A stretch of DNA of 64,000 nucleotides from positions 24,128-88,127 of the forward strand of contig DASZTO010000052.1 in assembly GCA_035548175.1 (NCBI GenBank), read 5' to 3'. Each line of letters begins with the position of its first letter. Position 1 is the stretch's first letter. Both the position numbers and the translations under genes were made by a program. Below, piece after piece: positions 11,231 to 64,000 of the stretch. This DNA comes from Phycisphaerae bacterium (lineage in GTDB: Bacteria; Planctomycetota; Phycisphaerae; WQYP01). The notes beneath the pieces were generated by a model, which ran no database searches, was not told the origin of the DNA, and worked only from the letters and a program-made list of their open reading frames with translations.

Positions 11231-11319
11231 AGCGTAATCTACTTCCGCCTGTTACACGGACGTCTCTGCCAAACGTTGCGGCAATCGTTGACCGTACCAC
11301 ACAACCGCCGTAAGTCAAG

Positions 11320-12594: not shown

Positions 12595-12647
12595 AAAGTG
12601 CCCGCCCCCCTTTACTCTTTTATCCCTTTCCGCTTTTATGCTTTCCC

Positions 12648-13436
12648 ATGCCTCCCCGCAAACGCACCGAATGGCTCCAGATCGGCTCCGGCAAAACCTA
12701 CGCCCACCGCACCCATTGGCCCCTCCAGTCCCTCATCTTCATCCTCCCCCTCCTGCTTTTCTACCAGATCGCCACCGCCATCCATCCCTGGGCCCCCGCG
12801 CCTGACCAGACCCCTCCCCAACTCGTCGCCTTCGTCCTGCTCCTCAAATTCTTCGCCCTCTTCGGCGCCGCAGGCAACATCCTCCCGCCCCTCGCCGTCA
12901 TCGCCATCCTCCTGGGCTGGCATCTCGCACGCAAGGACAAATGGGAATTCGATCCACGCCTCTACCTCGGAATGGCCGGCGAATCCCTCCTCTGGGCCAT
13001 CCCCATCTTCGTCATCGGCCTCGCACTCGTCCGCCACACCTCCATGCAGGCCGTCGCGCCTCCCGCCACTCCCCCCTCCGCCGCCCTCCCCTGGCAAACC
13101 GACATCGTCCTCTCCGTTGGCGCCGGTATCTACGAAGAACTCCTCTTCCGCCTCATCGCCATCACACTCCTCAACATCCTTTTCATCGATATCTTCGAAA
13201 TGAAAACTTCCCACGCCATCCCCCTCATTCTCATCCTCTCCGCCGTCCTTTTCGCCGGCTACCACTACCTCGGCTCGGAATCCTTCGCCACCGGCGGCTT
13301 CGCCACCTTCCTCTTCCGCACCGCCATGGGCATCTATCTCGCCGGCATCTTCATCTACCGCGGCTTCGGCATCGCCGCCGGCGCCCACGCCGCCTATGAC
13401 CTCATCGTCGTCGCCGCCTCCCACCTCCACCATTGA
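12648..13436 (+). CDS. CPBP (Abi/CAAX) family intramembrane glutamic protease
   Basis: YEELLFR, FAGYH and H-AAYD motifs in a multi-TM protein. Confidence 0.85.
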   Translation: MPPRKRTEWLQIGSGKTYAHRTHWPLQSLIFILPLLLFYQIATAIHPWAPAPDQTPPQLVAFVLLLKFFALFGAAGNILPPLAVIAILLGWHLARKDKWEFDPRLYLGMAGESLLWAIPIFVIGLALVRHTSMQAVAPPATPPSAALPWQTDIVLSVGAGIYEELLFRLIAITLLNILFIDIFEMKTSHAIPLILILSAVLFAGYHYLGSESFATGGFATFLFRTAMGIYLAGIFIYRGFGIAAGAHAAYDLIVVAASHLHH

Positions 13437-45308: not shown

Positions 45309-47168
45309 TTATTCCGCGGCGGCCAGCGCGGCGGCGGAGCGCTCGTGGCGCTTGCGATCCGTTTCGCGCAGGTAGCGCTTCCGCAGCCGGATCGTCTTGG
45401 GCGTGATCTCGACCAGCTCATCGTCCTCGATGTACTCGAGCGCGATTTCCAGCGACATATCGCGGGGCGGCTTGAGGATGATGTTTTCGTCGCTGCCGGT
45501 GGTGCGCATGTTGGAGAGTTTCTTTTCGCGGCAGACGTTGACGGTGATGTCGGTGTCCTTGTTGTATTCGCCGACGACCATGCCTTCATACACTTCGTCG
45601 CCGGGCTTGATAAACATCATGCCGCGGTCGGCGAGCTTGTCGAGCGCGTAGGCGTTGGCGGTGCCTGCTTCCATGGAGATCAGGACGCCGTTCTGGCGGC
45701 CGGGGAGCGCTCCGCGCAGGAGCTCATAGTCGTGGAAGGTGTGGTGCATGATGGCTTCGCCCTGGGTGGCGTTGAGCAGGCGCGTGCGCAGGCCGATCAA
45801 TCCGCGCGCCGGGATGGTGAACTCCATGTGCGTGAAGTTGCCCTTGGTGTCCATCTTGGCCAGTTCACCCCGGCGGTTGCCGATGGATTGCATGACCGCC
45901 CCTTCGAAAGCTTTGGGCACGTCGATGACCAGCAATTCGATGGGCTCGCACTTATGGCCGTTGAGTTCCTTGAAGATCACCTTGGGCTTGGAGACCTGAA
46001 GCTCGAAACCTTCGCGGCGCATGTTTTCCAGCAGCACTCCCAGGTGCAGCAGGCCGCGGCCCGACACGCGCAGCGAATCGGCCGACTGCGTGTCCTCCAC
46101 CCGCAGCGCCACGTTGGATTGGAGCTCCCGGTAAAGCCGCTCGCGCAGGTTCCGGCTGGTCACAAACTTGCCGTCCTGGCCGGCGAAGGGCGAATCGTTG
46201 ACCGAAAAAATCATGGAGAGCGTGGGCTCATCGACATCGATCAGGGGCAGCGCTTCGGGATGCTCCGGATGGGCGATGGTGTCGCCGATATCCACATCCT
46301 CGATTCCCACCACCGCGCAGATGTCGCCGGCTTCGGCGTGCGGCGTTTTGGTTCGGCCGAGGCCTTCAAACAGGTAGAGATCGACGATCTTATGCTTTTC
46401 GACCTTGCCGTTGCGCTTCAGCAGGGCGATCTGCTGATCTTTGTTGATGACGCCGTTGAACACGCGTCCGATGCCGATGCGGCCGACGTATTCGTTGTAA
46501 TCGATGTTGGTGATCTGCATCTGAAGGGGTTTTTCGAGATCGGCGACGGGGCCGCGGATCTTGGTGACGATGGTTTCGAGCAGGGGGCGCATGTCGGTGT
46601 TGGCATCCGCCGGATCCAGCCGTGCATAACCCGCGCGACCCGAGGCGTAAATCACCGGAAAGTCGAGGGCGTCTTCATCCGCTTCGAGCTCGACGAAGAG
46701 GTCGAAGACTTCGTTGAGGACCTCGTTGGGCCGGGCATCGTTGCGGTCGATCTTGTTGATGACCACGATGGGCTTGAGGTGGTACTGAAAGGCCTTTTTG
46801 AGCACGAAGCGCGTCTGGGGCATGGGGCCTTCGAAGGCGTCGACCAGGAGGAGCACGCCATCGGCCATCTTGAGGACGCGCTCGACTTCGCCGCCGAAAT
46901 CGGCGTGGCCGGGGGTGTCGATGATGTTGATTTTGCGGGTGACGCCTTTGGCATCCTCGTAGGTCATGGCGACGTTTTTGGCGAGGATGGTGATGCCGCG
47001 CTCGCGTTCGAGGGCGTTGTTATCGAGGATCAGTTCATTGCCAAGCTGGGATTGGCGGAACATGCCCGACTGGCGCAGCATGGCGTCGACCAGGGTGGTT
47101 TTACCGTGGTCGACGTGGGCGATGATGGCGATATTGCGAAGTTCGTCGCGGCGTTTCTGATTGGGCAT
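45309..47168 (-). CDS. typA: Translational GTPase TypA/BipA
   Basis: [52 protein letters not shown]. Confidence 0.97.
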
Positions 47169-47292
47169 GAGGCACTCGGTGCGGGTGTGAACGTCCGGTT
47201 AAGAGGGCGGATCGCCGCCCTTTGGGGAATTCGGCATTGTAGCACACCGGCGGAACAAATGCATGAGCCGCACGCGATTTTGCGATGAGGGA

Positions 47293-52697: not shown

Positions 52698-52770
52698 GGG
52701 GACGTAGCTCAATTGGGAGAGCACTAGCTTTGCAAGCTAGGGGTTGCCGGTTCGATCCCGGTCGTCTCCA
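52698..52770 (+). tRNA. tRNA-Ala (TGC)
   Basis: Cloverleaf GGGGACG/CGTCTCC with G3:U70; anticodon arm CTAGC-TTTGCAA-GCTAG; TTCGA T-loop; CCA not encoded. Confidence 0.96.
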
Positions 52771-53168: not shown

Positions 53169-53242
53169 GGGCGATTAGCTCAGTTGGTTAGAGCGCATGC
53201 ATGACACGCATGAGGTCACAGGTTCGAATCCTGTATCGCCCA
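53169..53242 (+). tRNA. tRNA-Val (GAC)
   Basis: GGGCGAT/ATCGCCC acceptor stem; anticodon arm CATGC-ATGACAC-GCATG; TTCGAAT T-loop; CCA not encoded. Confidence 0.94.
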
Positions 53243-53360
53243 ATAGGATATAAGTTGAGCTGAACGCATGCTTTATGCGTACCCGCCTCGCGGCGGTGCG
53301 GCTCCTGAAGGCTCGAAAATACCCTGTATTACTACAGGGTTGCCGAAAGGAGTGCCCGCC

Positions 53361-54671
53361 ATGGCCCGCAAAGCCAAGTCACTGCGCGTCCCAAACTACT
53401 GCCTTCACAAGCCCTCAGGCCAAGCCTACGTCTGCCTGTCGGGTAGGTTTTTCTACCTAGGCAAGTACAAACTGAGGCCGGACGGGAAACCCGACTGCCC
53501 CCGCTACCATGAACTCATCGCCGAGTGGATTGCGGGGCGCACGACCCCAGTGGCGGAGGCCGCCCCCGACGCATCCCCTGACGCGCCGGCGGCGAGGGAG
53601 CTGACGGTGGAGGAGGTGGTGGCGCGCTTTTGGGAACACGCGAAGGGCTACTACAAACTCGCGGACGGAAGCCAGAGCAGCGAAACGGAGTCTTTCCGTC
53701 AGGCGCTCCGCCCCCTGCGCCGCCTCTTCGGGGGCACGCCAGCAAAGGACTTCGGACCCAAGCGGTTCAAGGCGGTCCGCGATGAAATGGTGCGGATGGG
53801 GTGGTGTCGGACCAACGTGAACCGGCAGGCGGCGCGGGTGCGGCAAGTGTTCAAGTGGGCGACGGAGGAGGAGCTGGTTCCGGGCGTCGTGCTACACGCT
53901 TTGAAGGCGGTGCGGGGACTGCGCCCGCATACCGACAACGTGAAAGAATCCGCGCCTGTCAAGCCGGTGACAGAGCACGCCGTCGATGCGGTGCGGCCGC
54001 TGGTATCGCGCCAAGTGGCGGCGCTCATTGATCTGCAACTTCATACCGGGATGCGCCCGGGCGAGGCGGTCATTATGCGGGCGGCGGACCTGGCGGACCT
54101 GGACAAGAAGGTCTGGCTCTACCGCCCGCCCCGCCACAAAACCGCCCACCATGGCAAAGCCCGCGAAATTCTCATCGGTCCGAAGGCACAGGAGGTCTTA
54201 CGCCCGTTTTTCACAACTAACCCAAAGGCGTATCTTTTCTCCCCACGGGACGCCGACGCGGAGGCGGGGGTGAAGGGCGGCAATCCGGGGGACCGCTACA
54301 CGGTGGCTTCCTACCGCCGCGCCATTGCCCGCGCGTGCGATGAGGCATTCCCCCTGACGCCGGACCTGGCTCACATGGCGCGCCGCGCAAGGCAGTGGCG
54401 GGCAGCGTACGCGAAGGTCAACGGCAAGCGCCTCCCGCTGAAAAAGTGCCCCCCCCGGATTCTGAAAATGTGGGAGGCGGTGAACGACTTCCTCGCCGCC
54501 AACCGCTGGCATCCCCACCAGCTCCGCCACACCTTCGCAACGGCGATCCGCGCGACGCACGGATTGGAAGTCGCACAGATATTGCTCGGCCACGCCGATA
54601 CAAAAACGACCCTGCAATACGCCGAACAGGACACGCGCCGCGCGATGGAAGTAATGCGGGAGGTGGGGTGA
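53361..54671 (+). CDS. Tyrosine recombinase/integrase
   Basis: GMRPGE (R), HKT (K), HQLRH, LLGH, TLQY (Y); YCLHKPSGQAYV arm-binding start. Confidence 0.93.
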   Translation: MARKAKSLRVPNYCLHKPSGQAYVCLSGRFFYLGKYKLRPDGKPDCPRYHELIAEWIAGRTTPVAEAAPDASPDAPAARELTVEEVVARFWEHAKGYYKLADGSQSSETESFRQALRPLRRLFGGTPAKDFGPKRFKAVRDEMVRMGWCRTNVNRQAARVRQVFKWATEEELVPGVVLHALKAVRGLRPHTDNVKESAPVKPVTEHAVDAVRPLVSRQVAALIDLQLHTGMRPGEAVIMRAADLADLDKKVWLYRPPRHKTAHHGKAREILIGPKAQEVLRPFFTTNPKAYLFSPRDADAEAGVKGGNPGDRYTVASYRRAIARACDEAFPLTPDLAHMARRARQWRAAYAKVNGKRLPLKKCPPRILKMWEAVNDFLAANRWHPHQLRHTFATAIRATHGLEVAQILLGHADTKTTLQYAEQDTRRAMEVMREVG

Positions 54672-54694
54672 TGGCAACGACGCCCCACCGCAAA

Positions 54695-54946
54695 CTACTC
54701 ATCGGTGAAGCGGATGCCCAGCACGTCATTCATGCGCATCATGTTTTCCGCGGAGATGCCGGTGATGCCGCGCAGATAATCGTAGACGAGCGACCGGCTC
54801 ATATGCTTTTCAAGCTGCACGTGGAGCCACGCGATGTTCCGCTTCCGGCGCTTGAGCGCCTCCCGCACCGCCACCCGATGGTCCCGCCATTTCGCCATGG
54901 TCCCAGACATCCGATCCGCAACAACCGCGATCATGTTACACCCCAT
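54695..54946 (-). CDS. XRE-like HTH repressor
   Basis: SRSLVYDYLRG..ISAENMMRMNDVLGI; divergent from the rightward operon; start uncertain. Confidence 0.6.
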   Translation of the reverse strand: MGCNMIAVVADRMSGTMAKWRDHRVAVREALKRRKRNIAWLHVQLEKHMSRSLVYDYLRGITGISAENMMRMNDVLGIRFTDE

Positions 54947-54968
54947 TCATGCAGGCTAAAAGTACAAC

Positions 54969-54996
54969 TTGACTGTACACAGTGAGGCTGTATTAT
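54969..54996 (+). promoter_or_regulatory. Rightward promoter overlapped by a palindromic operator
   Basis: TTGACT-16-TATTAT; ACTGT-AC-ACAGT palindrome at 54972-54983; AAGGAG RBS at 55021. Confidence 0.55.
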
Positions 54997-55033
54997 AGTC
55001 CCGAATCCCGTTCACTTTCAAAGGAGAAATGCC

Positions 55034-55381
55034 GTGGCCGTGAAAACCCCCAAGAAACCCGCTGAGGCGACTGCGCCGATCCCCAGAGGTGTCACCCCCT
55101 TGGACCCTCGACACGCCCTCAACCTGCTGGAGGAGGTCATGCAACGGGTGCGCATGGCGCAGGTTCCCGATGTCGATCCCGACGATGGCGACGCGGACCG
55201 GCTCTGGTGTCAGTTCGAAGGCGTCGCAAGCCCGAACATGATGCACATGGGCGATGGCGATCTGCGGGACTTCCGCGATGGGTTGGAGAACGCGGTGGAC
55301 ATTGTGGCGAACCTGACCAGCGCGATGATGAGGGCGGCGGTGTGGCGGCGCGTGAGGGGGGAAGTCGGGGGTGGCGCATGA
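55034..55381 (+). CDS. Hypothetical protein
   Basis: GTG start after AAGGAG; ATGA-coupled to the next ORF. Confidence 0.6.
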   Translation: MAVKTPKKPAEATAPIPRGVTPLDPRHALNLLEEVMQRVRMAQVPDVDPDDGDADRLWCQFEGVASPNMMHMGDGDLRDFRDGLENAVDIVANLTSAMMRAAVWRRVRGEVGGGA

Positions 55382-55680
55382 GGGGCACGCCGAAAGAGCG
55401 GCGCATCACGCGCAAGCTCATGGAAATCGAGGCGGCCATCCGCGCGATGCCCGACGCCGAAAATATCGCCGACGATGTTTTGGCGGCGCTCCGCCACGTC
55501 GCGCGGCGAGAAGAACTCGCAAAGGAGTACACGGCGGAAGTTCACCGCCGGATCATGCGGATGCCCGATCCGGTGGGCGCGTGCAAAGCCATCCTCGCCG
55601 AACTCCCGGCGCAGGCCGGCTCATCGATATCGAACCCATCCGACTTCACCTTGCGGCTGGCGGACGGAGGTGCGGCATGA
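55378..55680 (+). CDS. Hypothetical protein
   Basis: MRGTPKERR...; ATGA overlaps at both ends. Confidence 0.6.
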   Translation: MRGTPKERRITRKLMEIEAAIRAMPDAENIADDVLAALRHVARREELAKEYTAEVHRRIMRMPDPVGACKAILAELPAQAGSSISNPSDFTLRLADGGAA

Positions 55681-55907
55681 GGAAAACCAAACCAGTGGAA
55701 AACGGTGCAGTCCTGGCTGACATCGAACCGCTGTTAACCCCGGAAGGTGTCCGGCTGGCCCGCCGGATACTGTGGCGGCTGATTATGCGAGAGCCCGCGT
55801 ATTTCCTGAGAAAACCACCCGCGCTCGCAGTGGTTTTGAAGGAACGGGACACGCGACGAACGGCTTCCGGGAATTTCCGCTTTCCGGTTGGCGGAGGTGA
55901 CGCATGA
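55677..55907 (+). CDS. Hypothetical protein
   Basis: MRKTKPVENG...; ATGA overlaps at both ends. Confidence 0.55.
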   Translation: MRKTKPVENGAVLADIEPLLTPEGVRLARRILWRLIMREPAYFLRKPPALAVVLKERDTRRTASGNFRFPVGGGDA

Positions 55908-56200
55908 CGAGCAATGACCTTACGCGGGTGCCGGAGCAAACGACGGCGTTTCCCATCGGGCGCGTGTCGGACGAGTTGCAGTCATTCCTCTTCTACCGCG
56001 CGGCGAAGATGCCGGCGGCGGAGCTGGCGGCGCTGCTGCGGGAGTTTCACGCGCAGAGCGGATGCGGAGGCGACGCCGACGCGTTTGTGGGTGCCGTGCT
56101 GGCGCACAACGCTGGCTGGCGGCTCGCGGTGGAGCGGACGCGGCGGGAGCAAGCGGCAGCGGAAGCCGGTGCGAGGCGACTGGCCGCGAGCGTGCAGTGA
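55904..56200 (+). CDS. Hypothetical protein
   Basis: MTSNDLTRVPEQ...; ATGA overlap; GGAGG upstream. Confidence 0.6.
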   Translation: MTSNDLTRVPEQTTAFPIGRVSDELQSFLFYRAAKMPAAELAALLREFHAQSGCGGDADAFVGAVLAHNAGWRLAVERTRREQAAAEAGARRLAASVQ

Positions 56201-56329
56201 GGCGGCATCATGGGGCATCCGCGCGGCAGGCGGCGCGGGTGTCCCCGGCGTCGCCGATCTTTAAGTTTTGAGAAAAACCGATGGTTCCTTAGCTTGCTAA
56301 GTCGGGGACCGAAAAGGCGAAAACTTCAA

Positions 56330-57691
56330 ATGTTCAAGCGTGACGATTGGACCTTGTTCCGGGCAATGGACACCCTCATATCACAGGCGGGGGTGCCACC
56401 CGACCGGCTGCGGAGGCTTGTGGTTAAAGAGCTTGCGGACAACGCCTTGGACGCGGCCGGGGGCGCTGCGGTGGTGGAGCTGGACGATGGCTCATACGTT
56501 GTGCAGGATGTCGGCCCCGGCATCCCCGGCACGGATGAGGAAATCGCCGCGTTGTTCTCGATCCGCCGCCCGCTGACATCATCCAAGCTGGTGAGACTCC
56601 CAACGCGGGGCGCGATGGGCAACGGTCTACGGGTTGTGGCGGGAGCGGTCATGGCGTCCGGCGGCAGGCTGGTGGTGACAACGGGGGGCAGGACGTTGAC
56701 CCTTTGCCCCCAAGATGACGGCGGCACCGCCATTGTGAATTGCTCGCCAAGCCCGAACCGTTCCCCGGGCACGCGGATCGAGGTGTCGCTGGGAGATACC
56801 GTTCCAGCAGACCCCGACCCGCTGATCTGGGCGGAGGTGGCCATTGCGTTCGCGGACGGGGGGACACGGTACAAGGGTAAGACGTCCGGATGGTGGTATG
56901 ACGCCGACACGTTTTTTGAATTGTGCAGCGCCGCCGGCGAGCGGACGGTGAGGGAGGTGGTGGAAGGGATGGATGGATGCACCGGCGCGAAGGCTGGGGA
57001 GGTTGCGGCCGGTTTTGCCGGGCGGCGAGCGGCGGACATTTCCCGTGATGAGGCGTCGCGGCTCCTGGGGGAAATTCGGGCGCGATCAAGAGAGGTGAAA
57101 CCGTCGCGGCTGGGTTACATCGGGGACATCGATGGGTACGTGCGAGGAAAGGTGGAGGGCGTTCGGGGCCGGGACGGTGGACGCGGGGGGCCGGCGGCAA
57201 GGGTGCCCTTTGTGGTGGAGGCGTTTGCGAAGGTGCAGGACGCGGATTCTGTGATGGTGCTGGTGAACCGCTCGCCGATCACGGGCGAGGTGAGCGTTTG
57301 GCGGGGCGATGGTGACACGGCGAAAATTATTCTGGCGGGGTGCGGACTCAATCACAACATCAAGGTGGGGAGGCGGAAGCTGGGGCTGGTGGTGAACGTC
57401 ACGACCCCCTACATGCCGGTGGTGAGCGGCGGCAAAGCGCCGGACCTCAGCGAGTTTGTTGAAGCCATCGCAAGCGCGGTCATTACGGCGGCGCGGCGAG
57501 CGAAGGCGCTAGCGGGCAAGGGTGCGGGGAAACTCACAACTAAAGACATCATTGTGCGCAATCTCCCTCTTGCGGTGGCGAAGGCCAGCGGGGACGGGCA
57601 ATATCGTTACAGCATCCGCCAGTTGTTCTACGCGAGGCAGCCCGCTGGCGCAGGCGGAGGGAGTGACGATCAATTACCCGTGGTTTTGTGA
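56330..57691 (+). CDS. Type IIB topoisomerase (Topo VIII-like), N-terminal part: GHKL ATPase, transducer and catalytic-Tyr helix
   Basis: ELADNALDA, DVGPGI, RGAMGNG, GTRIEV (Bergerat fold); VNRSP and SGGK (transducer); SIRQLFY; homology leaves this frame near 57641. Confidence 0.8.
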   Translation: MFKRDDWTLFRAMDTLISQAGVPPDRLRRLVVKELADNALDAAGGAAVVELDDGSYVVQDVGPGIPGTDEEIAALFSIRRPLTSSKLVRLPTRGAMGNGLRVVAGAVMASGGRLVVTTGGRTLTLCPQDDGGTAIVNCSPSPNRSPGTRIEVSLGDTVPADPDPLIWAEVAIAFADGGTRYKGKTSGWWYDADTFFELCSAAGERTVREVVEGMDGCTGAKAGEVAAGFAGRRAADISRDEASRLLGEIRARSREVKPSRLGYIGDIDGYVRGKVEGVRGRDGGRGGPAARVPFVVEAFAKVQDADSVMVLVNRSPITGEVSVWRGDGDTAKIILAGCGLNHNIKVGRRKLGLVVNVTTPYMPVVSGGKAPDLSEFVEAIASAVITAARRAKALAGKGAGKLTTKDIIVRNLPLAVAKASGDGQYRYSIRQLFYARQPAGAGGGSDDQLPVVL

Positions 57692-58583
57692 CGTGGTGGG
57701 GACCCACGAGGCGGCGACGGGGGCGGACGTTCCGGGCATCTATCGGGATGCGAGAGGCATTTTGTATCACCCGCACGAGGGGCGGGATATTCCGTTGGGG
57801 ACGATGGCGGTGGAGCGGTACGAGCGCCCGGCGTGGACGTTCAACAAGGTGCTGTATTCTGAAAAGGAAGGCATTTTTGAGATATTGAAGCAAGAGCGGT
57901 GGCCGGAGAAAAACGACTGCGCGCTGCTGACCAGCAAGGGCTTTGCATCGCGGGCGGCGCGTGACGTGCTCGATCTCATGGGAGAGACTTCCGAAGATAT
58001 CCTGTTTTTTTTGATTCACGATGCCGACGCCTACGGCACGAGCATTTACCAATCTCTGCAAGAAGCAGCCAAAGCCCGGGCGGGGCGGACGGTGCGCGTG
58101 GTGAATCTGGGTTTGGAACCCGATGAGGCGATGGCGATGGGGTTGGAACCGGAAAAGGTGGAATCGAAGCGCAAGGCACACGCTGTTGCGGACTACGTTA
58201 CCGATCCGAAGTGGCGGAAGTGGCTGCAAACGCATCGTATCGAACTCAACGCCATGCCGACGCCAACGCTGCTGCGGTGGCTCGACACGAAGATGGAACG
58301 GTGGCACAACGGCAAGGTGATACCGCCGGCGGCGGTGCTGACCGCTGAACTGGCGGATCGGGTACGGAAGGCGGCGCGGGAGCAGATTACCGAGCGGTTG
58401 CTGCGGGAGGCGAAGGTAGATGACCTGGTGACGGTGGCGGTGGACGCGTTGGCCGAGACGATTCACGCCGCCGAGAGGGATTTGGATATAACGGTGATGC
58501 GTGGACTGTTCACCGCGACGGAAAAGTTATGGACCGCACCCATGCAAGAGTTGGCCGAGAAGATTGTGAACAAGGAGGAATAG
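57642..58583 (+). pseudogene. Type IIB topoisomerase C-terminal part (WHD remainder plus TOPRIM) in the +1 frame
   Basis: YRDARGILYHPH, YSEKEG, KGFASRAAR, HDADAYG (DxD), RIELNAM; no convincing own start, so pseudogene, sequencing error or recoding. Confidence 0.65.
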
Positions 58584-58585
58584 AA

Positions 58586-58744
58586 GTGGACAAGCGCCGC
58601 AAACCCCGCCGCATCGCGGGCAAGCCCACCCCGGTCCCCGCCGACGTGCAAGAGCGCATCGACGCGCTCATCGGGGAGGTGGGATTGGACGTGGCGGAGG
58701 TGATGGGGCTGACGGTGGCGACGGAGCGCCGGCGGAGCAGATAA
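58586..58744 (+). CDS. Small hypothetical protein (52 aa)
   Basis: GTG start with AAGGAGG upstream. Confidence 0.4.
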   Translation: MDKRRKPRRIAGKPTPVPADVQERIDALIGEVGLDVAEVMGLTVATERRRSR

Positions 58745-58851
58745 TTTCAACGGGCAAGCGGCTGATCCCCGCTTGAACGGTTCGGGGCGGGGCGCGTTCA
58801 CCTCATGGCGCGTCCCGTCCCGGCCGGCCCGGTTACATGAGGTATGGGCCG

Positions 58852-59157
58852 ATGGCCGACAAGTTTGATTTTTCCAGCCCCCAGGTTCAGCAGGTACTGC
58901 GGGAGGTTTTTTTTGATGTGCTTGGTGGGGCGGAGGTGTTCGGTGATGTGGCCGACTATTTTGAGGGAAGGAAAACCCTTGGCGAGATTGCGCGGGAATA
59001 CGACATTTCGGTAAGCGCCGCGAGGAAGCGGGCGGAGCGCGTCCGCTCCGTGCTGAAGCGCTATGGGATTTTCCCTGCGAAGTGGGAGGCGGCGAGAACG
59101 AAGGCGCGAGAGAGATACGCGCGCAAAGGGATGAAGCGGGAGGATTGCGCACCATAA
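58852..59157 (+). CDS. HTH protein, sigma70 region 4-like
   Basis: KTLGEIAREYDISVSAARKRAERV; start could be 58837. Confidence 0.55.
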   Translation: MADKFDFSSPQVQQVLREVFFDVLGGAEVFGDVADYFEGRKTLGEIAREYDISVSAARKRAERVRSVLKRYGIFPAKWEAARTKARERYARKGMKREDCAP

Positions 59158-59341
59158 AGTGCGCACGCCACCGCTTTATACGGGGGGCGTCCGGTCGGGG
59201 ACGATGTTGCGCACCGTTCGGGGCGCAGTAGATGCCTTCATACAAGGGCACAATCGGGGACTGCGCACCAGATGGTGCGCAGACGCGCCAGTAAATATAG
59301 GGCGAGCGCGGGCAGGGGCGGGAAACTGATTTTCGGAACCG

Positions 59342-59370
59342 AAGGCCGCGCGTTGCGGCCTTTTTTTATT
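59342..59370 (+). terminator. Intrinsic terminator
   Basis: AAGGCCGC-GCGTT-GCGGCCTT followed by TTTTTATT. Confidence 0.85.
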
Positions 59371-59411
59371 GGCTCGTAACTGTCGATTATCGACCAACTT
59401 AGGAGAACCCG

Positions 59412-59651
59412 ATGGAAACTTTCATCGGCGCAGGCGAGGCTGCGCGCAAGGCGGGGGCGAAGAAGCCCCGGAACGTCTCGGACCTTTTCGCGGAAGGGAA
59501 GCTCGACGCAGAAAAATGTCCGATCGTCGCGGGCTGCCGGATGATCCCTGAGAGCATGTTGCCGGAAATTCAGCGGCAGCTTCACAAAAAGGGATGGCTG
59601 ACCTTGGCGGCGGAGGCGGAGATGCGAGGGGAGGCGGCGCATGCAAGCTGA
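59412..59651 (+). CDS. HTH DNA-binding protein (MerR/excisionase-like)
   Basis: AGGAG RBS; IGAGEAARKAG...VSDLF..GKL..CPIVAGCRMIP. Confidence 0.6.
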   Translation: METFIGAGEAARKAGAKKPRNVSDLFAEGKLDAEKCPIVAGCRMIPESMLPEIQRQLHKKGWLTLAAEAEMRGEAAHAS

Positions 59652-59862
59652 ACCAACAAACTTTGACGCGAGGGGCGCGGCGGATTTTCTCGGCGTTAGC
59701 GTCGGGCTGATCCGACAGGACATCGTTACCCGCCGCCATAGGTTTCCTTTCGTGCGCGTTGGGCGGCGAGTCGTCTACCCCCGCGACCTCCTGACCCGCT
59801 GGCGAAACGCGCATACCGAAAATCTCCCCCCCGAAAACGGCAACTCCCCACAAAAACATTGA
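59641..59862 (+). CDS. Excisionase/AlpA-like HTH protein
   Basis: DARGAADFLGVS, PFVRVGRRVVYPRDLLTRW. Confidence 0.75.
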   Translation: MQAEPTNFDARGAADFLGVSVGLIRQDIVTRRHRFPFVRVGRRVVYPRDLLTRWRNAHTENLPPENGNSPQKH

Positions 59863-59943
59863 TCGAGCTATGAGGCTTTCAGAGCGCAACGCGAACCGCC
59901 CGCTTTTCGACGGGCTGGGCGGGTCGCTAATTACGAGGAATAC

Positions 59944-60351
59944 ATGGATACTATTCGATATACCCCCCCATCGTCAATCCCCCGCGCCGCATTCCTAATG
60001 ACCCGTCTGCCCGCCGGCGGCTTTCGCGTCGATGTGCGCGGCTTCGGCGCGGCGACATTCGCCCCCGCCGATCTGACCGACCCCGCCGCCCGGGAAAGTT
60101 TCGTCCGCGCGATCGGCGAGCGGTTCCCCGACCTGGCTTTCGACGGCGCGCCCGACGCCCTCGCCCGCTGTATCCGCGAACTGGCCAGCGGACAGCCGGC
60201 GGCGGGCGATGCCGTCGATGCGATCCGCGCTTCCGTCCGCTGCCTCGCCGAGCAGTTGGCGGCGGAGCCAGAGCCAAAGCGAAAGAAAAACCCATCGAAA
60301 GCCGAGCGAATCCGGCGCATGAATCTTCAGTTAAGCGAGGTGCCGGCATGA
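59944..60351 (+). CDS. Hypothetical protein upstream of the helicase
   Basis: GAGG RBS; ATGA-coupled to the D5 helicase gene. Confidence 0.55.
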   Translation: MDTIRYTPPSSIPRAAFLMTRLPAGGFRVDVRGFGAATFAPADLTDPAARESFVRAIGERFPDLAFDGAPDALARCIRELASGQPAAGDAVDAIRASVRCLAEQLAAEPEPKRKKNPSKAERIRRMNLQLSEVPA

Positions 60352-61718
60352 AGCTCACCACCGTCAAATATAAACTTTCGGACATAGGTAATTCCGAGCG
60401 ATTCGCCGGTCACTGGCAAGGAAAACTCATATACGTCGCCGGCATGGGCTGGTTTATCTGGGACGAGAAACGCTGGCGGCTGGCGACGAAGGGGGAGTAC
60501 ATCGAATGCGCGAAGAAAACCGTCCGCGCTATGTACGCCGAAGCCTCCCGTTGCGAGGAGGAGGGTTACCGCGCCGCGCTCGCCGACTGGGCGGCATCAT
60601 GCGAATCCGAAAAGCGCCTCATGTCGATGCTCCGGCTGGCGCAGAGCGACCCCCGCCTCGCCGTCAACGCTGACCAGCTCGACGCCGACCAGATGATTCT
60701 GAACGTTGAAAACGGAACTATCGACCTGCGAACGCTAAAGCTTCGTCCGCATGATCCCGCGCAACTATGCACCAAACTTGCGCCCGTCACCTATGACGCG
60801 GCGGCGAAGTGCGCTACATGGCTTGCCTTTCTCGACCGCATTTTCGCGCAGGACGCCGACCTAATCGGATACGTGCAACGCATCTTCGGCAACGCCATCA
60901 CCGGCGACGCTACCGCACAGATTCTCCCGATCCTTTGGGGTGAGGGCGCGAACGGAAAATCTACGCTCGTCGGGGCGATCATGGCGATTCTCGGAGACTA
61001 TGCGGGAACCGCCGCCGATACGCTTTTAATGGCGGGGAGGAATGAACATCCGTGCGAAAGAGCAGATTTACAGGGGAAGCGATTCGTTGCGGCGAGTGAA
61101 ACATCATCGACAGCAAAATTCAATATGGCCATCGTAAAGCAGCTGACTGGCGAGCCGAGGATTAAGGCTCGAAAGATGCACGGAAATTATTATGAGTTTC
61201 TGCGGACCCACAAGCTGTTCTTGCAAACGAACAACAAGCCCCGCGTTTCCGAAGATTCTGAGGCGGTGTGGCGGAGGCTTCGGCTCATCCCCTTCAACGT
61301 CATTATTCCTGAAGCGGAAAGAGACCGTCGCTTGCTCGAAAAGCTCGTCGCTGAAGGGTCCGGAACTCTGAACTGGTTGCTGATCGGGTGCCGGGAATGG
61401 CAAGAGCAGGGATTCGGGATGTCCGACGCCGTGGCGGACGCGACCCGAGCCTATCGAGCCGAATCGGACCCCATCGCGGGATTCATCGAAGATTGTTGCG
61501 TCTTGGGCGCGGACGTAACGGCGAGCAGTGGGGCGCTCCGCTCTGCCTATGAAACATGGTGTAAAACGCAAGGCGCGCACCCCATCAGCGGCAAAGCGTT
61601 CGCTGCCCGACTGACCAAAATGCAATGCGAGCCAGACCGCAACTTTTCGGGGCGATTCTGGCGCGGCGTCGGCATCGTTTCCAACGCCCATGCCGAGGTA
61701 TCCGACCATGGCGCATGA
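60348..61718 (+). CDS. Phage/plasmid P4-family D5 protein (D5_N plus SF3 helicase)
   Basis: SDIGNSERF, WDEKRW, CTKLAPVTYD, Walker A GEGANGKST, KRFVAASE, KQLTG, TNNKP, AVWRRLRLIPF. Confidence 0.92.
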   Translation: MKLTTVKYKLSDIGNSERFAGHWQGKLIYVAGMGWFIWDEKRWRLATKGEYIECAKKTVRAMYAEASRCEEEGYRAALADWAASCESEKRLMSMLRLAQSDPRLAVNADQLDADQMILNVENGTIDLRTLKLRPHDPAQLCTKLAPVTYDAAAKCATWLAFLDRIFAQDADLIGYVQRIFGNAITGDATAQILPILWGEGANGKSTLVGAIMAILGDYAGTAADTLLMAGRNEHPCERADLQGKRFVAASETSSTAKFNMAIVKQLTGEPRIKARKMHGNYYEFLRTHKLFLQTNNKPRVSEDSEAVWRRLRLIPFNVIIPEAERDRRLLEKLVAEGSGTLNWLLIGCREWQEQGFGMSDAVADATRAYRAESDPIAGFIEDCCVLGADVTASSGALRSAYETWCKTQGAHPISGKAFAARLTKMQCEPDRNFSGRFWRGVGIVSNAHAEVSDHGA

Positions 61719-61800
61719 CGCATATGACAGCAGGTTTGATAAATCGGCCCCGCGGGAGAATCTGGGGGAATTTACGGAAGTTGCCGTCATATCCGACATG
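61714..61800. repeat. 19-bp imperfect inverted repeat directly after the helicase (ori candidate)
   Basis: CATGACGCATATGACAGCA (61714-61732) versus reverse complement of 61782-61800, CATGTCGGATATGACGGCA: 16/19 match. Confidence 0.7.
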
Positions 61801-62105
61801 CGCCATGGAAAACCGCGTTCTTACTATCAAAAACAGGGGCGCGACGCTGGACCCGACATGCGGCTTATCGCCCGCGACACCGCAAATACCCCCCTGTCGC
61901 ATCCATCCGCGTCGATATGTAAGCCTTCCGTGACGCCGCCGCTCACCCCTGACCAACGCGATGTCCTGCATCGCCTCGCCACCAGCGGCACCGGCGCATT
62001 GCCACCCACGAACAACCCCGCGCAACGCCGCTGGCGTTCAATCGTCCAACGCATCCGCGCCCAACGCCGCACCGCATTGAACACCCCGACCGGCGAGGTG
62101 ACGGC

Positions 62106-62417
62106 ATGAGTGACACCGCCGCTCGGAATGCCCCGCAAGGCGCGGCAATCCCCAATTCTCCCACGACAGGAGGATTGGTGACTGACGCCGCCGCTCAGAA
62201 TCGTCAGGAAGCCACCGTCCCGCCCGTTTCCCGCGTCGATACGCCCAAGGTGGAGGTGTGGAGCATTGTACTCGTGGCAACGCCTGGAAACGTCCCGGCG
62301 ACGTGCAGAATCAAAAAGCTCCTCAAGTGCGCCGCCTGGTACGGGTTGCGATGCACTGCGGCGATTGAAGTGAAGCCGGACGCCGACACGAACGCTTCGC
62401 CGAGCGGGAGGTACTGA
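62106..62417 (+). CDS. Hypothetical phage-type protein
   Basis: P...RIKKLLKCAAWYGLRC motif; ATGA overlap with an upstream ORF (61690-62109, itself doubtful). Confidence 0.55.
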   Translation: MSDTAARNAPQGAAIPNSPTTGGLVTDAAAQNRQEATVPPVSRVDTPKVEVWSIVLVATPGNVPATCRIKKLLKCAAWYGLRCTAAIEVKPDADTNASPSGRY

Positions 62418-62555
62418 CGTGAGCACCGCCACCAGCGCGGACATTTTGGCGGCGTGTGTATGGAGATTCTGCCCGGTCATGCACCGCGCATGCTCGCGCT
62501 CCTTTTCCAAGGACCCGAAAGACTTCCCCCACAGTGGTTTACAAAAAAAGGCTGC

Positions 62556-62606
62556 GGGTCCTTCCAAAGCCATACCCCTTATGCGGGTGATCGCGGGCCA
62601 ATCGCT
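62556..62606 (+). promoter_or_regulatory. Lambda cosQ/cosN-like packaging site candidate
   Basis: GGGTCCT(TCC) at 62556, then TCGCGGG-CCAA-TCGCT; about 110 bp before terS. Confidence 0.45.
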
Positions 62607-62665
62607 CTACACGGACAACTTGTCGTTTATAACTTTCGCTACCAGAGAGTTTTAGGAGTGAAGCT

Positions 62666-63160
62666 ATGTCAAAATGTCCAGAGTTAAAGCTAGGGCGCGA
62701 TGCGGCGAAGGCGCTGGGTCTGACCGCGCGCACGCTGCAAAGTTACGTTCGGCGCGGCTGTCCGCATACGCCGTCGCCAGCGGGCGCGATGTTCGACCCG
62801 GCCGACGTGCGCGCCTGGATGGAGCAGAGCAAGCTGACGGGCAATCCTGGCAGACCAGCGAGGGAGGAATCGTCCGAACTGGCGGCGGCGCGGCTTCGGA
62901 AGGAAAACGCACTGGCGGCGAAATACGAGCTGGCTGTCGCGGTCGAGCGCGGCGAGCTGGCGCGGATCGACGATGTCAAACAAGATTGGTTGGCGCGAAT
63001 CACAACTACCAAGCACCGGCTGCTCGGACTGCCGGCGGCGATGGCACCGACCCTCGAAGGGCTGAGCGCCGAAGCGATGGCGGCGATGCTCCGGGAGCGA
63101 ATCACGGAGGCGCTGTCGCCGTTGGATCCCGGCGACGATGCGTGCGGGGGCGGAAAATGA
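62666..63160 (+). CDS. Terminase small subunit, lambda Nu1-like
   Basis: AGGAG RBS; winged HTH (AKALGLTARTL...GCP...FDPADVRAW); coiled coil ending RGELARIDDV. Confidence 0.75.
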   Translation: MSKCPELKLGRDAAKALGLTARTLQSYVRRGCPHTPSPAGAMFDPADVRAWMEQSKLTGNPGRPAREESSELAAARLRKENALAAKYELAVAVERGELARIDDVKQDWLARITTTKHRLLGLPAAMAPTLEGLSAEAMAAMLRERITEALSPLDPGDDACGGGK

Positions 63161-63426
63161 AGCCCACCGTGAAACTTTCCCTCGAATCCTGCGCCATCGG
63201 CATTTTTCTGGATTGTCCCGAACTATCGAAAGAACAAATCGCCGCGCTGCTGCGTGTGCATCCGTCGTCCGTCGCGCGTTTACCGACGTTCAGCCGGATA
63301 TTTGCAGCGCACCGGGAATGCAACCGTGGGGCGATTCTGCGGGGTCGCGCGACTCGCGGCGGTGGCTTCGACGTGGAATACGATGACCCGCACTTCGACC
63401 TTGTGGACGAAAAATTGTCGGAATAA
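63157..63426 (+). CDS. Small HTH-like protein
   Basis: ATGA overlap with terS; LSKEQIAALLRVHPSSVAR. Confidence 0.55.
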   Translation: MKPTVKLSLESCAIGIFLDCPELSKEQIAALLRVHPSSVARLPTFSRIFAAHRECNRGAILRGRATRGGGFDVEYDDPHFDLVDEKLSE

Positions 63427-63460
63427 CGCAATCGGCCGCCCTATGTACAGAGGAGCACGT

Positions 63461-63646
63461 ATGACCGTGAAACCCGAGATTGTCCAGAAGCTCAAAGACA
63501 ACCCTGCCGCGCTGTTTGCGGAGGCGGAATTGAGCGCCCGCCGCGAGGACTGGCCGAACATGGCGGCGGCGTTGCACGCGCTTTCACGGCAGGGAATAAA
63601 AGTGACGTTCACGGTCCCCGCTCGCCCCGTGGTGGTGAAGGTTTGA
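63461..63646 (+). CDS. Hypothetical protein (61 aa)
   Basis: GAGGAG RBS; MTVKPEIVQKLK. Confidence 0.55.
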   Translation: MTVKPEIVQKLKDNPAALFAEAELSARREDWPNMAAALHALSRQGIKVTFTVPARPVVVKV

Positions 63647-63668
63647 AACGCTCGAAAGGAATCCGCCG

Positions 63669-64000
63669 ATGACCCCTGACAAACTCCCCAGCGCCCTGCA
63701 TGGTTTTCTTCGCAACTGCGGTTTGTGTGTTTCTCGCGGCGACAATGGCGCGATGAATCTGGCCGCGCCGGATATGGACCCGGACGTTGTGAACTCCACG
63801 CTGGACCGCACCGTGCGGGACCTCTTGCAGCAGCACAAAGCGGACATCCTCGCCCTCGCCGATGCCGAGCCGCAAATTGACGGCACCGATGGTAACAACG
63901 GCGACGATACCCTTGCGGCGCTGGCCCGGTCGGAAGACAGCCCCGGCTGGCGGGACGCCATGCGGTCGGTTGTGCAGCGCATTGCCCTGAAGAAATGGAC
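63669..64000 (+). CDS. Hypothetical protein, 3'-truncated; TubC-N-like start
   Basis: AAGGA upstream; open to the window end (MTPDKLPSALHGFLRNCG...LAAP...LLQQHKADILALA). Confidence 0.5.
   Translation, partial: MTPDKLPSALHGFLRNCGLCVSRGDNGAMNLAAPDMDPDVVNSTLDRTVRDLLQQHKADILALADAEPQIDGTDGNNGDDTLAALARSEDSPGWRDAMRSVVQRIALKKW

Follow-up and report, generated by a model that had tools for sequence, protein, structure and literature searches.

What is the cluster of genes that follows the tRNA-Val(GAC) gene in this 64,000-nucleotide stretch of DNA (the window)? We read it, from its genes, as an integrated mobile island, complete at about 15.7 kb, that is built of satellite-type parts and likely packaged by a helper phage, and give this reading a probability of about 65%. 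The following features define its left end:

53169–53242, plus strand: tRNA-Val(GAC) (ARAGORN)
53238–53259, unstranded: left arm of a 22-nt terminal inverted repeat abutting the att core (repeat search, 91% complementary)
53361–54671, plus strand: tyrosine integrase (PF00589, 1.5e-15; phrog_1, 4.6e-38)

The island is integrated in the 3' half of the tRNA gene between exact 44-nt direct repeats. The left copy, attL, is the last 44 nt of the tRNA (53199–53242), from the anticodon loop to the 3' end. Our view of the right side comes from a public contig, L001, which shares 10,788 identical bases with the window, continues beyond the window end and ends in attR. The first 30 nt of L001 are the last 30 nt of the 44-nt tRNA stretch and its last 30 nt are the first 30 of that stretch; in a k=31 assembly, such overlapping ends indicate an exact 44-nt repeat at both ends of the element. 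Extension of the contig thus recovered the second copy of the tRNA-Val 3' end, attR, about 5 kb past base 64000. The sequence-only reading had placed the element at 53243–64000; it is the same element, but it starts within the tRNA at 53199 and ends beyond the window, at window-equivalent position ~68,972. The right partner of the terminal inverted repeat lies just inside attR (L001 15697–15718), and the two arms are candidate core-binding sites for the integrase. In four of four soil metagenome runs the depth of the island equals that of the chromosome (one copy per chromosome). Because the 44-nt repeat exceeds the assembler's word length, excision junction forms are not readable from contigs. 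A relative from a different study, L019, is 15.6 kb long and bounded in the same manner, by a 45-nt repeat derived from another tRNA. Where the source names one, relatives come from Phycisphaerae/Planctomycetota MAGs, and the host is presumably a planctomycete, judging only by the taxonomy of relatives of the island's genes.

The left part of the island encodes regulators, small proteins and one large cargo gene:

54695–54946, minus strand: small Cro/CI-type HTH gene (HTH_3, E 1.4e-3, below the Pfam curated cut-off)
54969–55021, unstranded: overlapping divergent sigma-70-like promoter matches between the HTH gene and the rightward operon (consensus matches only)
55034–56200, plus strand: four small ORFs of 115, 100, 76 and 98 aa (called on L001)
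56210–58583, plus strand: Topoisomerase VIII gene, frame-broken (HATPase_c, 5.6e-7; TOP6A-Spo11_Toprim, 1.5e-12; Top6B/Top6A NCBIfam)
58852–59157, plus strand: small HTH protein of sigma-70 region-4 type (weak Pfam matches, HTH_28 1.1e-3, Sigma70_r4 5e-3)
59146–59281, unstranded: three 20-nt palindromes, TGCGCACC-N4-GKGCGCA (repeat search)
59341–59363, plus strand: intrinsic-terminator-like hairpin with a T-run (10 pairs, then TTTTTATT)
59412–59862, plus strand: 79-aa ORF and HTH_17 (AlpA/excisionase-type) gene (HTH_17, 3.3e-5; phrog_66, 6.7e-5)

The integrase is 436 aa as called on L001, with the longest ORF beginning at 53268, and lies beside the tRNA as had been noted. A divergent repressor had also been claimed: the opposite-strand HTH gene is present and has a homologue in L019 (40% identity, phmmer 1.3e-7), but with a sub-threshold HTH match its product is a candidate repressor. 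The element's two best promoter matches (11/12 and 10/12) both fall within 54969–55021, making this region a candidate genetic switch. Two of the four small ORFs that follow were scanned and had no Pfam or PADLOC match. Further right, the sigma-type HTH protein is a candidate regulator, and the palindromes, spaced 62 and 54 nt apart, make up a candidate operator array ahead of the replication operon. The hairpin is the best terminator match in the element and lies as a divider between the early and the replication operon. The excisionase-like HTH of the sequence-only reading is the 73-aa HTH_17 protein (59641–59862), a candidate Xis on sub-threshold HTH matches; it and the 79-aa ORF form a pair conserved in L019 (62% and 44% identity, respectively).

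The Topoisomerase VIII gene encodes the type IIB layout GHKL-transducer-5Y-CAP-Toprim in a single chain, with GHKL boxes ELADNALDA, DVGPGI and GAMGNG (GxxGxG type), the catalytic-tyrosine motif RQLFY followed by A-R-Q-P, the Toprim Glu and DAD, and the RIELNAM signature. The RxxFY and RIELNAM motifs agree with those given for Topoisomerase VIII in PMC7671362. Relatives of about 770 aa number in the hundreds, and among the matches listed most are single chains of 740–810 aa that align to residues 41–478 of the first ORF. In all four runs, a +1 frame change near 57645–57660 breaks the island gene into ORFs 56210–57691 and 57663–58583. In published two-gene variants the split falls within the transducer domain, whereas the island copy changes frame just after the catalytic tyrosine, suggesting that its product is probably inactive and the gene decayed cargo, probably a pseudogene. 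The broken gene, a sign of some decay, and the single-copy depth in all four runs are points against a satellite.

Replication functions follow:

59944–60351, plus strand: 135-aa ORF overlapping the helicase start (ORF call)
60348–61718, plus strand: D5/P4-type superfamily-3 replicative helicase, 'primase C-terminal' module (D5_N, 5.5e-34; DUF5906; Pox_D5)
61706–61808, unstranded: inverted repeat, candidate replication origin (repeat search; fold z = -4.5)

The D5 helicase that had been recognized from the letters scores 297 bits against TIGR01613 ('phage/plasmid primase, P4 family'; cut-off 108.7), and the D5 helicase of L019 is 56% identical to it. Many relatives are 720–790 aa long with an extra Prim-Pol or Toprim N-terminus; the island helicase has no primase domain, and none was found elsewhere in the island by family scans. 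The 135-aa ORF has no family match in Pfam, PHROGs or NCBIfam scans, and its slot is occupied in L019 by an AEP primase. The ori-like inverted repeat begins at the helicase stop codon and consists of 39-nt arms (61706–61744 and 61770–61808) around a 25-nt spacer, with CATGACG-like iterons; none of 200 shuffles was equally stable. Four related elements (L019, L021, L002 and L003) have equivalent inverted repeats of other sequence, starting within ~40 nt of the helicase stop codon. That the arms match within each element though their sequence differs between elements indicates selection.

The features around terS come next:

62106–62417, plus strand: 103-aa ORF between the helicase gene and terS (tblastn/phmmer)
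62554–62602, plus strand: candidate packaging (cos / terS-binding) site (motif recurrence)
62666–63160, plus strand: terS, small terminase subunit, lambda Nu1 position (phrog_57, 5.3e-24)
63157–64000, plus strand: start of the right-hand module, with ORFs of 89 and 61 aa and the first part of a 144-aa ORF (L001 gene calls)

The 103-aa ORF is conserved in four related elements (L018, L021, L019 and L020). An annotated phage terS resembles the island protein along its full length, and the phrog_57 match covers residues 11–152. Homologues at 42–43% identity (~90% of length) stand directly upstream of GpA-type terL; in phage loci L014 and L015, the homologue is followed by a GpA_ATPase/GpA_nuclease terL and a Phage_portal_2 match (truncated in L014). 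By this synteny, the island protein is a genuine small terminase in the lambda Nu1 position, as previously proposed, which supports a cos-type helper. The same family occurs without terL in small islands L016 (AAA_25 helicase) and L018 (tRNA-Ala, integrase, HTH); IMG/VR contains no close relative of the island terS. The candidate packaging site comprises GCGGGTCCTT and two further GCGGGY copies, 112 nt upstream of terS. Its 10-mer GCGGGTCCYT, at 62554, recurs in L014, where it precedes terS by 93 nt, and in L018, where it precedes a terS-like ORF by 109 nt, with just one further occurrence in 352 kb on both strands. The cos-like site claimed earlier thus gains a motif found upstream of terS or a terS-like ORF in three loci, but it stays a candidate. 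Among the contigs of the four runs, no other carried the region upstream of terS and no helper phage was found.

An unlikely alternative is a plasmid that has integrated, or an integrative mobilisable element, in either case unconnected with phages, replicated by D5 and either moved by conjugative helpers or immobile. Under this alternative 'terS' would be a MerR/Xis-type regulator, and indeed Pfam alone assigns it only HTH_17/MerR, while the modeled N-terminal winged helix, which resembles terS DNA-binding domains and gpNu1 (not significantly), is a fold also common to MerR regulators and excisionases. Published Topoisomerase VIII genes are confined to mobile elements, among them plasmids both free and integrated (PMC7671362, PMC4117785), and D5/P4-type helicases are common on integrated plasmids. 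However, the match of terS to proteins that precede GpA terL is full-length and not confined to the HTH, and no ORF matched a relaxase, coupling protein or partition gene. Relatives, moreover, keep the int-HTH-D5-origin-terS order but have unrelated, bona fide small-terminase families in the terS position: Terminase_4 in L019 (phrog_83, 1e-28), int-D5-HNH-Terminase_4 and then a non-terL ORF in L024, and int-D5-DUF5681 in L025. Two relatives (L019 and L021) carry a terS or terS-like gene with a bona fide tape measure protein. The integrase, regulator, replication, origin and terS layout noted before is therefore recurrent, and its recurrence with swapped terS families is expected of satellites.

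Past the window, L001 encodes ORFs of 310, 195 (HExxH), 91, 92 and 580 aa (coiled coil) and a 148-aa minus-strand ORF before attR. This right-hand module of ~5.5 kb holds nine ORFs downstream of terS without a detectable family, with nothing above noise in Pfam, PHROGs, NCBIfam or PADLOC. Among the called ORFs downstream of terS, these scans found no gene for terL, portal, capsid, tail or lysis functions, either before the window end, as the sequence-only reading had it, or up to attR; tblastn with terL, portal and capsid of the phage loci detected no similarity in the island. With attR 5 kb downstream and none of these genes before it, the island is not an ordinary prophage. No capsid-size-redirection or interference gene is recognizable in it, and no homology was detected between the 580-aa ORF and tape measure proteins.

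A decayed prophage remnant, immobile and with intact-looking ends by chance after loss of its structural genes, is somewhat less probable still than a plasmid. It would account for the frame-broken large gene, the 5.5 kb without homologues, and the single chromosomal copy with no sign of activity in depth. Yet the two direct repeats agree in all 44 nt and have matching inverted repeats beside them, the integrase, helicase and terS genes are all full-length, and the origin arms indicate selection; random decay is also an unlikely source given L019, an independent relative of near-equal size, gene order and bounding. A small autonomous temperate virus with particle proteins too divergent to recognize (the 310- and 580-aa proteins being candidates) is very improbable, despite the nine family-less ORFs and a 15.4-kb D5 relative with a Peptidase_S78 prohead-protease gene and large neighboring ORFs, because terS packaging needs a terL ATPase/nuclease and a portal, both among the most conserved of phage proteins and neither found by HMM or tblastn, and because the proteins without a family are mostly small and the two large ones alanine-, glutamine- and glutamate-rich, helix-type and unlike capsid or portal.

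We conclude that the island is probably a PICI-like satellite, strict PICI membership not being established; the earlier proposal of a satellite of a cos-type helper is supported by the attR, the missing virion genes and the terL neighbors of terS homologues. PICIs (SaPIs of Staphylococcus and EcCICFT073-type of E. coli) are of like size, about 15 kb, and of like layout: a site-specific integrase gene occupies one end, the small regulators are divergent, an AlpA/Xis-type HTH is present, the origin directly follows the replication gene, and terS belongs to the right half. They too lack terL, capsid, tail and lysis genes (PMC10085698). The island differs in having no recognizable cpm, ppi or rpp (capsid morphogenesis/redirection), a helicase without primase, a terS of lambda Nu1-position type and Topoisomerase VIII cargo, and shows no sequence relationship to PICIs beyond shared domain families. 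Proteobacteria and Firmicutes account for more than 99.9% of detected PICIs, whereas the island's host is probably a member of Planctomycetota. To our knowledge, the cos-dependent PICIs characterized so far work through Rpp or a copy of the cos site, not through a Nu1-like terS of their own.

Satellite P4 of E. coli and its relatives share the C-terminal helicase module (TIGR01613), small size, tRNA integration and dependence on a cos-type helper, the last of which we infer for the island; the P4 core genes psu, delta, sid, epsilon and ash-type regulators were not detected in it. P4 is not known to carry a terS and depends on having the same cos site as its helper. VEIMEs/tycheposons likewise have a tyrosine integrase, primase/helicase, AlpA and tRNA targeting, and a minority carry terS homologues closest to those of co-occurring phages (PMC9618062); they are known from marine particles and hosts with encapsidation observed directly, whereas the island is from soil and known from genes alone. 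EPIPs of Mycolicibacterium (preprint, PMC12822802) combine terS and a tape measure protein, as do L019 and L021, and the island's 580-aa coiled-coil ORF sits in the tape-measure slot; EPIPs differ in their serine integrase, major capsid protein, scaffold and head-tail adaptors, none of which is in the island.

As a satellite, the island would respond to a helper phage, newly infecting or induced, whose terminase is of the GpA (cos) type, and the divergent HTH switch would be released. Integrase and the AlpA/Xis-like protein would excise it via the tRNA-derived repeats, and the helicase would open the inverted-repeat origin for replication of the circle, with primer synthesis by host or helper since the island lacks a primase domain. 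Island TerS may then bind a site in the ~250-bp stretch upstream of its own gene and recruit helper TerL, so that island DNA would be cut, packed into helper-made particles, delivered to new cells and integrated into tRNA-Val. The right-hand module, including the coiled-coil protein, may serve helper interference, particle remodeling or cargo. Redirection of packaging by satellite-encoded small terminases is established for SaPIs/PICIs, and terS also occurs in marine satellites (PMC10085698, PMC9618062). If the island is a satellite, it would place one in a bacterial lineage in which none has been described.

The island in the tRNA-Val(GAC) gene is bounded by the same repeat at both ends. An exact look-up with its small terminase (terS) protein retrieved L001, a 15,746-bp soil-metagenome contig that is identical to the window across 10,788 shared bases. 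L001 opens on the final 30 nt of tRNA-Val and closes on gcatgacacgcatgaggtcacaggttcgaa, which corresponds to window 53199-53228, with an overlap of 16 nt between its two ends. For an assembly at k=31, this arithmetic (30 + 30 - 16) gives an exact 44-nt direct repeat at the island ends, extending from the anticodon loop through the 3' end of the tRNA. It follows from this geometry that the island is about 15.73 kb as a circle, with attR at approximately window-equivalent 68,929-68,972. The attR that the sequence-only reading proposed to find by contig extension is thus located on L001, and sets the element at about 15.7 kb. A repeat search also returned a 22-nt inverted repeat adjoining the att core on either side. 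The features referred to below are as follows.

Features of the island and its left flank (window positions)
52698-52770, tRNA-Ala(TGC), ARAGORN
53169-53242, tRNA-Val(GAC), ARAGORN
53199-53242, 44-nt repeat forming the left end of the island
56210-58583, topoisomerase VIII gene (GxxGxG type, RQLFY, RIELNAM)
59146-59165, 59208-59227 and 59262-59281, three 20-nt palindromes, TGCGCACC-N4-GKGCGCA, spaced by 62 and 54 nt
59341-59363, strong terminator preceding the replication operon
61706-61744 and 61770-61808, arms of an inverted repeat at the helicase stop codon (39-nt arms, 25-nt spacer)
62554, motif GCGGGTCCYT, 112 nt upstream of terS

The chromosome upstream of both tRNAs encodes TrpB-like and PriA-like ORFs (translations read by eye), TypA, PheT, SpeA and CtaD. 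These are universal genes only, with no planctomycete-specific domain in the flank. From the taxonomy of relatives of the island genes we infer that the host phylum is Planctomycetota. Inside the TypA gene (46601-47201), contig depth is 275-400x against 8-25x around it, probably as a conserved stretch of many community members collapses in the assembly graph. Just inside attL (53320-53340), run X4 holds a second contig with five differences within 20 nt and at a depth higher than that of the island's own pieces, which points to a co-occurring strain with either a variant island or a different element at that tRNA.

The integrase, opposite-strand HTH, excisionase-type HTH, D5 helicase and terS genes named in the sequence-only reading are all present from 53268 onward. 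We compared this content with the five core and the forbidden components of PICIs as used in SatelliteFinder (PMC10085698). A tyrosine integrase (PF00589, 1.5e-15; phrog_1, 4.6e-38) adjoins tRNA-Val and, with exact repeats at both ends, provides the integrase and specific attachment site of a PICI. The candidates for the regulation component (alpA/merR/stl) are an 83-aa opposite-strand HTH_3 gene (E 1.4e-3) and an HTH_17 gene of the AlpA/excisionase type (E 3.3e-5; phrog_66, 6.7e-5), both under the curated cut-off in Pfam; genes of both types are kept in L019, an element with a related helicase. The helicase (456 aa; D5_N, DUF5906 and Pox_D5) reaches 297 bits with TIGR01613 ("phage/plasmid primase, P4 family"), whose cut-off is 108.7. 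It supplies the primase-replicase component with an adjacent candidate origin, though as the helicase half only, lacking a primase domain. The space between the HTH gene and the rightward operon holds the two highest-scoring sigma-70-like promoter matches in the island, which face each other. The three palindromes sit in the intergenic region ahead of the replication operon and have the appearance of an operator array; no counterpart turned up in L019.

Two overlapping ORFs between the regulators and the replication genes encode a GHKL ATPase and a Topo VI-A/Spo11 Toprim domain. The first has the N, G1 and G2 boxes (GxxGxG type) and, near its C-terminal end, RQLFY followed by A-R-Q-P; the second has the Toprim Glu, DAD and RIELNAM. 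These motifs are the marks of topoisomerase VIII (PMC7671362), and the full set of GHKL, transducer, 5Y-CAP tyrosine, Toprim and RVELNAM box is present. The 150 best relatives are mostly single chains of 740-810 aa, matching residues 41-478 of the first ORF, which identifies the island gene as a topoisomerase VIII with a frame change. The change (+1) lies just after the catalytic tyrosine, near 57645-57660, whereas published two-gene forms are split in the transducer domain instead (PMC7671362). No indel variant was found at this gene in four runs, which all agree on the sequence, and it is probably an inactivated cargo gene. With 1623 cluster representatives at E<=1e-3 in a library of 1.84 billion proteins, the family is far larger than the set of 82 sequences published in 2019. 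Defence-system cargo was not matched by PADLOC in any ORF tested.

The inverted repeat at the helicase stop codon is the obvious candidate for an origin recognised by the helicase. SaPIs and P4 have origins recognised by their own replication protein. Folded as single-stranded DNA, the island repeat is more stable than its shuffles by 4.5 standard deviations. Each of the four related elements having sequence downstream of the helicase (L019, L021, L002 and L003) has an inverted repeat with arms of 19-42 nt that begins within approximately 40 nt of the helicase stop codon, and each contains two or three CATGACG / GTGACGC-like units in its arms. The arms match inside one element and diverge between elements; a fixed position combined with arms that co-vary is good support for the site being functional.

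The terS gene (164 aa) matches phrog_57, "terminase small subunit", over its full length (5.3e-24). Its relatives are few: only seven in a collection of 5.8 billion proteins, no close one in IMG/VR, and three loci only in a terS profile scan of metagenome contigs. Those in phage context (L014 and L015) share 42-43% identity with it. In L015, terS is followed by a GpA_ATPase/GpA_nuclease terL, a small ORF, Phage_portal_2 and a capsid gene, the Nu1-A-W-B order of lambda; in L014 the order is terS, GpA terL, small ORF and a shortened portal. Two further loci are of the island type. L016 has an AAA_25 replicative helicase and then terS, with no terL after it, and L018, a stretch of approximately 10 kb adjoining tRNA-Ala, has an integrase, an HTH_26 gene, a homologue of the island's 103-aa ORF and a terS-like gene, again with no terL. 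One terS family therefore occurs both in cos-type phages beside terL and in integrase-bearing islands lacking terL, a dual distribution of the kind that PICIs and their helpers are known to show. The island thus carries the terS homologue of a PICI, one whose homologues are syntenic with GpA terL. An AlphaFold model of terS (pLDDT 77) combines a winged helix at the N-terminus with long helices. The closest structures in PDB are DNA-binding domains of small terminases, lambda gpNu1 and PICI Rpp, along with MerR and Xis, but these matches span the 55-residue winged helix only (E 0.08-0.3); the predicted fold is compatible with a small terminase and does not discriminate it from MerR/Xis. In L014 (10001-17089), the GpA terL and a portal cut to 118 aa are followed by an integrase with 31% identity to that of the island, small ORFs and an AAA_25 helicase, and this locus may be an island inserted in the portal gene of a prophage.

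The 250 bp upstream of terS are poorly coding and hold the motif GCGGGTCCYT. The same motif lies 93 nt upstream of terS in the phage-type L014 and 109 nt before the start of the terS-like ORF in the island L018, with one further occurrence only in 352 kb, both strands. A second pattern, GGGGGTGGCGGGG..AGCGGGTAA, is common to L014 and L016, approximately 70 nt upstream of terS. The motif upstream of terS is a candidate cos or terS-binding element. Of the cos-like site in the sequence-only reading, a recurrent motif at this position stands; that it is cos is at the level of a candidate. No other contig in the four soil runs shares the region upstream of terS as a helper would.

Downstream of terS, nine ORFs extend to attR: eight on the plus strand (89, 61, 144, 310, 195, 91, 92 and 580 aa) and one on the minus strand (148 aa). 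None has a meaningful match in Pfam, PHROGs, NCBIfam or PADLOC, or tblastn similarity to the terL, portal and capsid genes of the phage loci. Apart from six small ORFs (71-133 aa), scanned in part at most, all ORFs called on L001 were run through the family libraries, and no large terminase, portal, major capsid, tail or lysis gene was found in the 15.7-kb att-bounded unit. The sequence-only reading would have given way to an ordinary temperate prophage had terL, portal, capsid and tail genes lain just downstream, and the sequence extended to attR without them rules that prophage out. The forbidden genes of a PICI (tail, holin, portal, head-tail connector) were likewise not detected in the island, nor were the capsid, portal, prohead protease and head-tail connectors of a cfPICI. 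The nine ORFs include no match to cpmA/B, ppi or rpp in the four libraries, genes so poorly conserved that their absence weighs little.

The 580-aa ORF has one partial homologue only among 5.8 billion proteins and no sequence match in PDB. It reads as a coiled coil and occupies the slot of the tape measure gene in related elements. Against those tape measure proteins, phmmer, blastp and hhalign gave no similarity beyond shuffled controls. The 310-aa ORF has no match in PDB or the family libraries. Past the window end, the 195-aa protein (L001 11846-12433) has an N-terminal HEAGH metalloprotease-type motif and no significant family match. The 148-aa protein (L001 15015-15461), on the opposite strand and adjoining attR, has two CxxC pairs and a hydrophobic C-terminal tail, also without a significant family match.

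Helicase relatives number in the hundreds, and the approximately 100 best share 40-74% identity. Within that set the organism-named sources (40-49% identity) are all Phycisphaerales, Phycisphaerae, Phycisphaeraceae or Planctomycetota MAGs, with a few Bacillota names further down the match list; the two best GTDB matches are Phycisphaerae MAGs, and an IMG/VR search gave one distant match. In L002, a tRNA-Gly is followed by an integrase and the element. Four other relatives show the layout in more depth.

Elements with a related D5 helicase (identity to the island helicase; positions within each locus)
L019, 56%: 15,628-bp contig with ends overlapping in a 45-nt, tRNA-like repeat; integrase, HTH_3 homologue, 79-aa/HTH_17 pair (62% identity), AEP primase, helicase, 103-aa ORF homologue; Terminase_4 terS (phrog_83, 1e-28); tape measure protein at 10939-13143 (734 aa; phrog_9483, 4.5e-34)
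L021, 54%: helicase, 103-aa ORF homologue, HTH_17, 426-aa ORF, tRNA fragment; tape measure protein at 896-2776 (626 aa; phrog_28, 1e-11); weak MerR-type ORF in the slot matching L019 terS
L024, 49%: integrase-helicase-HNH-Terminase_4, then an ORF that is not terL; adjoins planctomycete-typical PSCyt2/PSD1 genes
L025, 48%: integrase-DUF1580-helicase-DUF5681

A single backbone with swappable, unrelated terS families is what would be expected if each island were tuned to a different helper. Despite their tape measure proteins, L019 and L021 lack capsid, portal and terL, and no other structural gene was matched in L019. A tail gene in a satellite-like element is almost without precedent. Mycobacterial EPIP satellites and PLE11, the latter from a preprint cited there (PMC12822802), are the only tape-measure precedents found for such elements. 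On a JGI contig of 15,397 bp with the helicase relative P0018, DUF1580, CsrA and the D5 helicase are followed by a Peptidase_S78 prohead protease with neighbours of 591 and 301 aa; this contig may represent a capsid-forming version of the backbone.

In the soils sampled (four metagenome runs of one study, k=31 contigs), the depth of the island equals that of the flanking chromosome: 12.5 against 10.9-12.4, 22.9 against 20.4-24.2, and 9.85 against 8-10.4. No copy-number excess over the chromosome was seen in the four runs, and the equal depth indicates one copy, integrated and quiescent. The alternatives to a satellite are an integrated plasmid, a dead remnant and a cryptic mini-virus, which together hold about one third of the probability, with specific evidence against each. 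The island departs from P4 in having its alpha-type helicase module only, and no PHROGs match to psu, delta, sid, epsilon or ash-type regulators was found in it. Of the marks of an integrative conjugative or mobilisable element, no relaxase or T4SS Pfam family was found in any ORF.

The boundaries, gene content, terS synteny, conserved origin position and family of relatives support the PICI-like satellite of the sequence-only reading as far as sequence analysis reaches, and the island would depend on a helper phage, possibly a tandem prophage beyond attR. We conclude that the island would work like a PICI, yet we do not file it as a member of the PICI family, because its helicase lacks a primase domain, a search for capsid-redirection genes found none, and the defining behaviour, induction and packaging by a helper, is a prediction. 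Under the no-tail rule for PICIs, the relatives L019 and L021 would fail, each carrying a tape measure gene.

A wider reading, to which we give a probability of roughly 0.3, is that Planctomycetota (Phycisphaerae) harbour widespread, unrecognised tRNA-integrated satellites. These would share an int/AlpA/D5/origin backbone, swap at least three unrelated terS families according to helper, and in many cases carry their own tape measure or tape-measure-like coiled coil, re-programming the tail or DNA delivery of the helper as well as its packaging specificity. Such a strategy is so far reported only for mycobacterial EPIPs.

Phage satellites shape phage-host dynamics and gene flow, and the known ones are almost all from Proteobacteria and Firmicutes; our literature search returned no paper linking them to Planctomycetota. 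To our knowledge, few phages of this phylum have been described. An island with a Nu1-type terS predicts that these soil bacteria are hosts to lambda-like cos phages, which are themselves parasitised. It also offers concrete, testable parts in the terS, the candidate cos region, the origin, the att sites and the integrase. The relatives suggest that terS families are exchanged as modules and that satellites carry tape measure proteins, which would add to the known ways of exploiting a helper.
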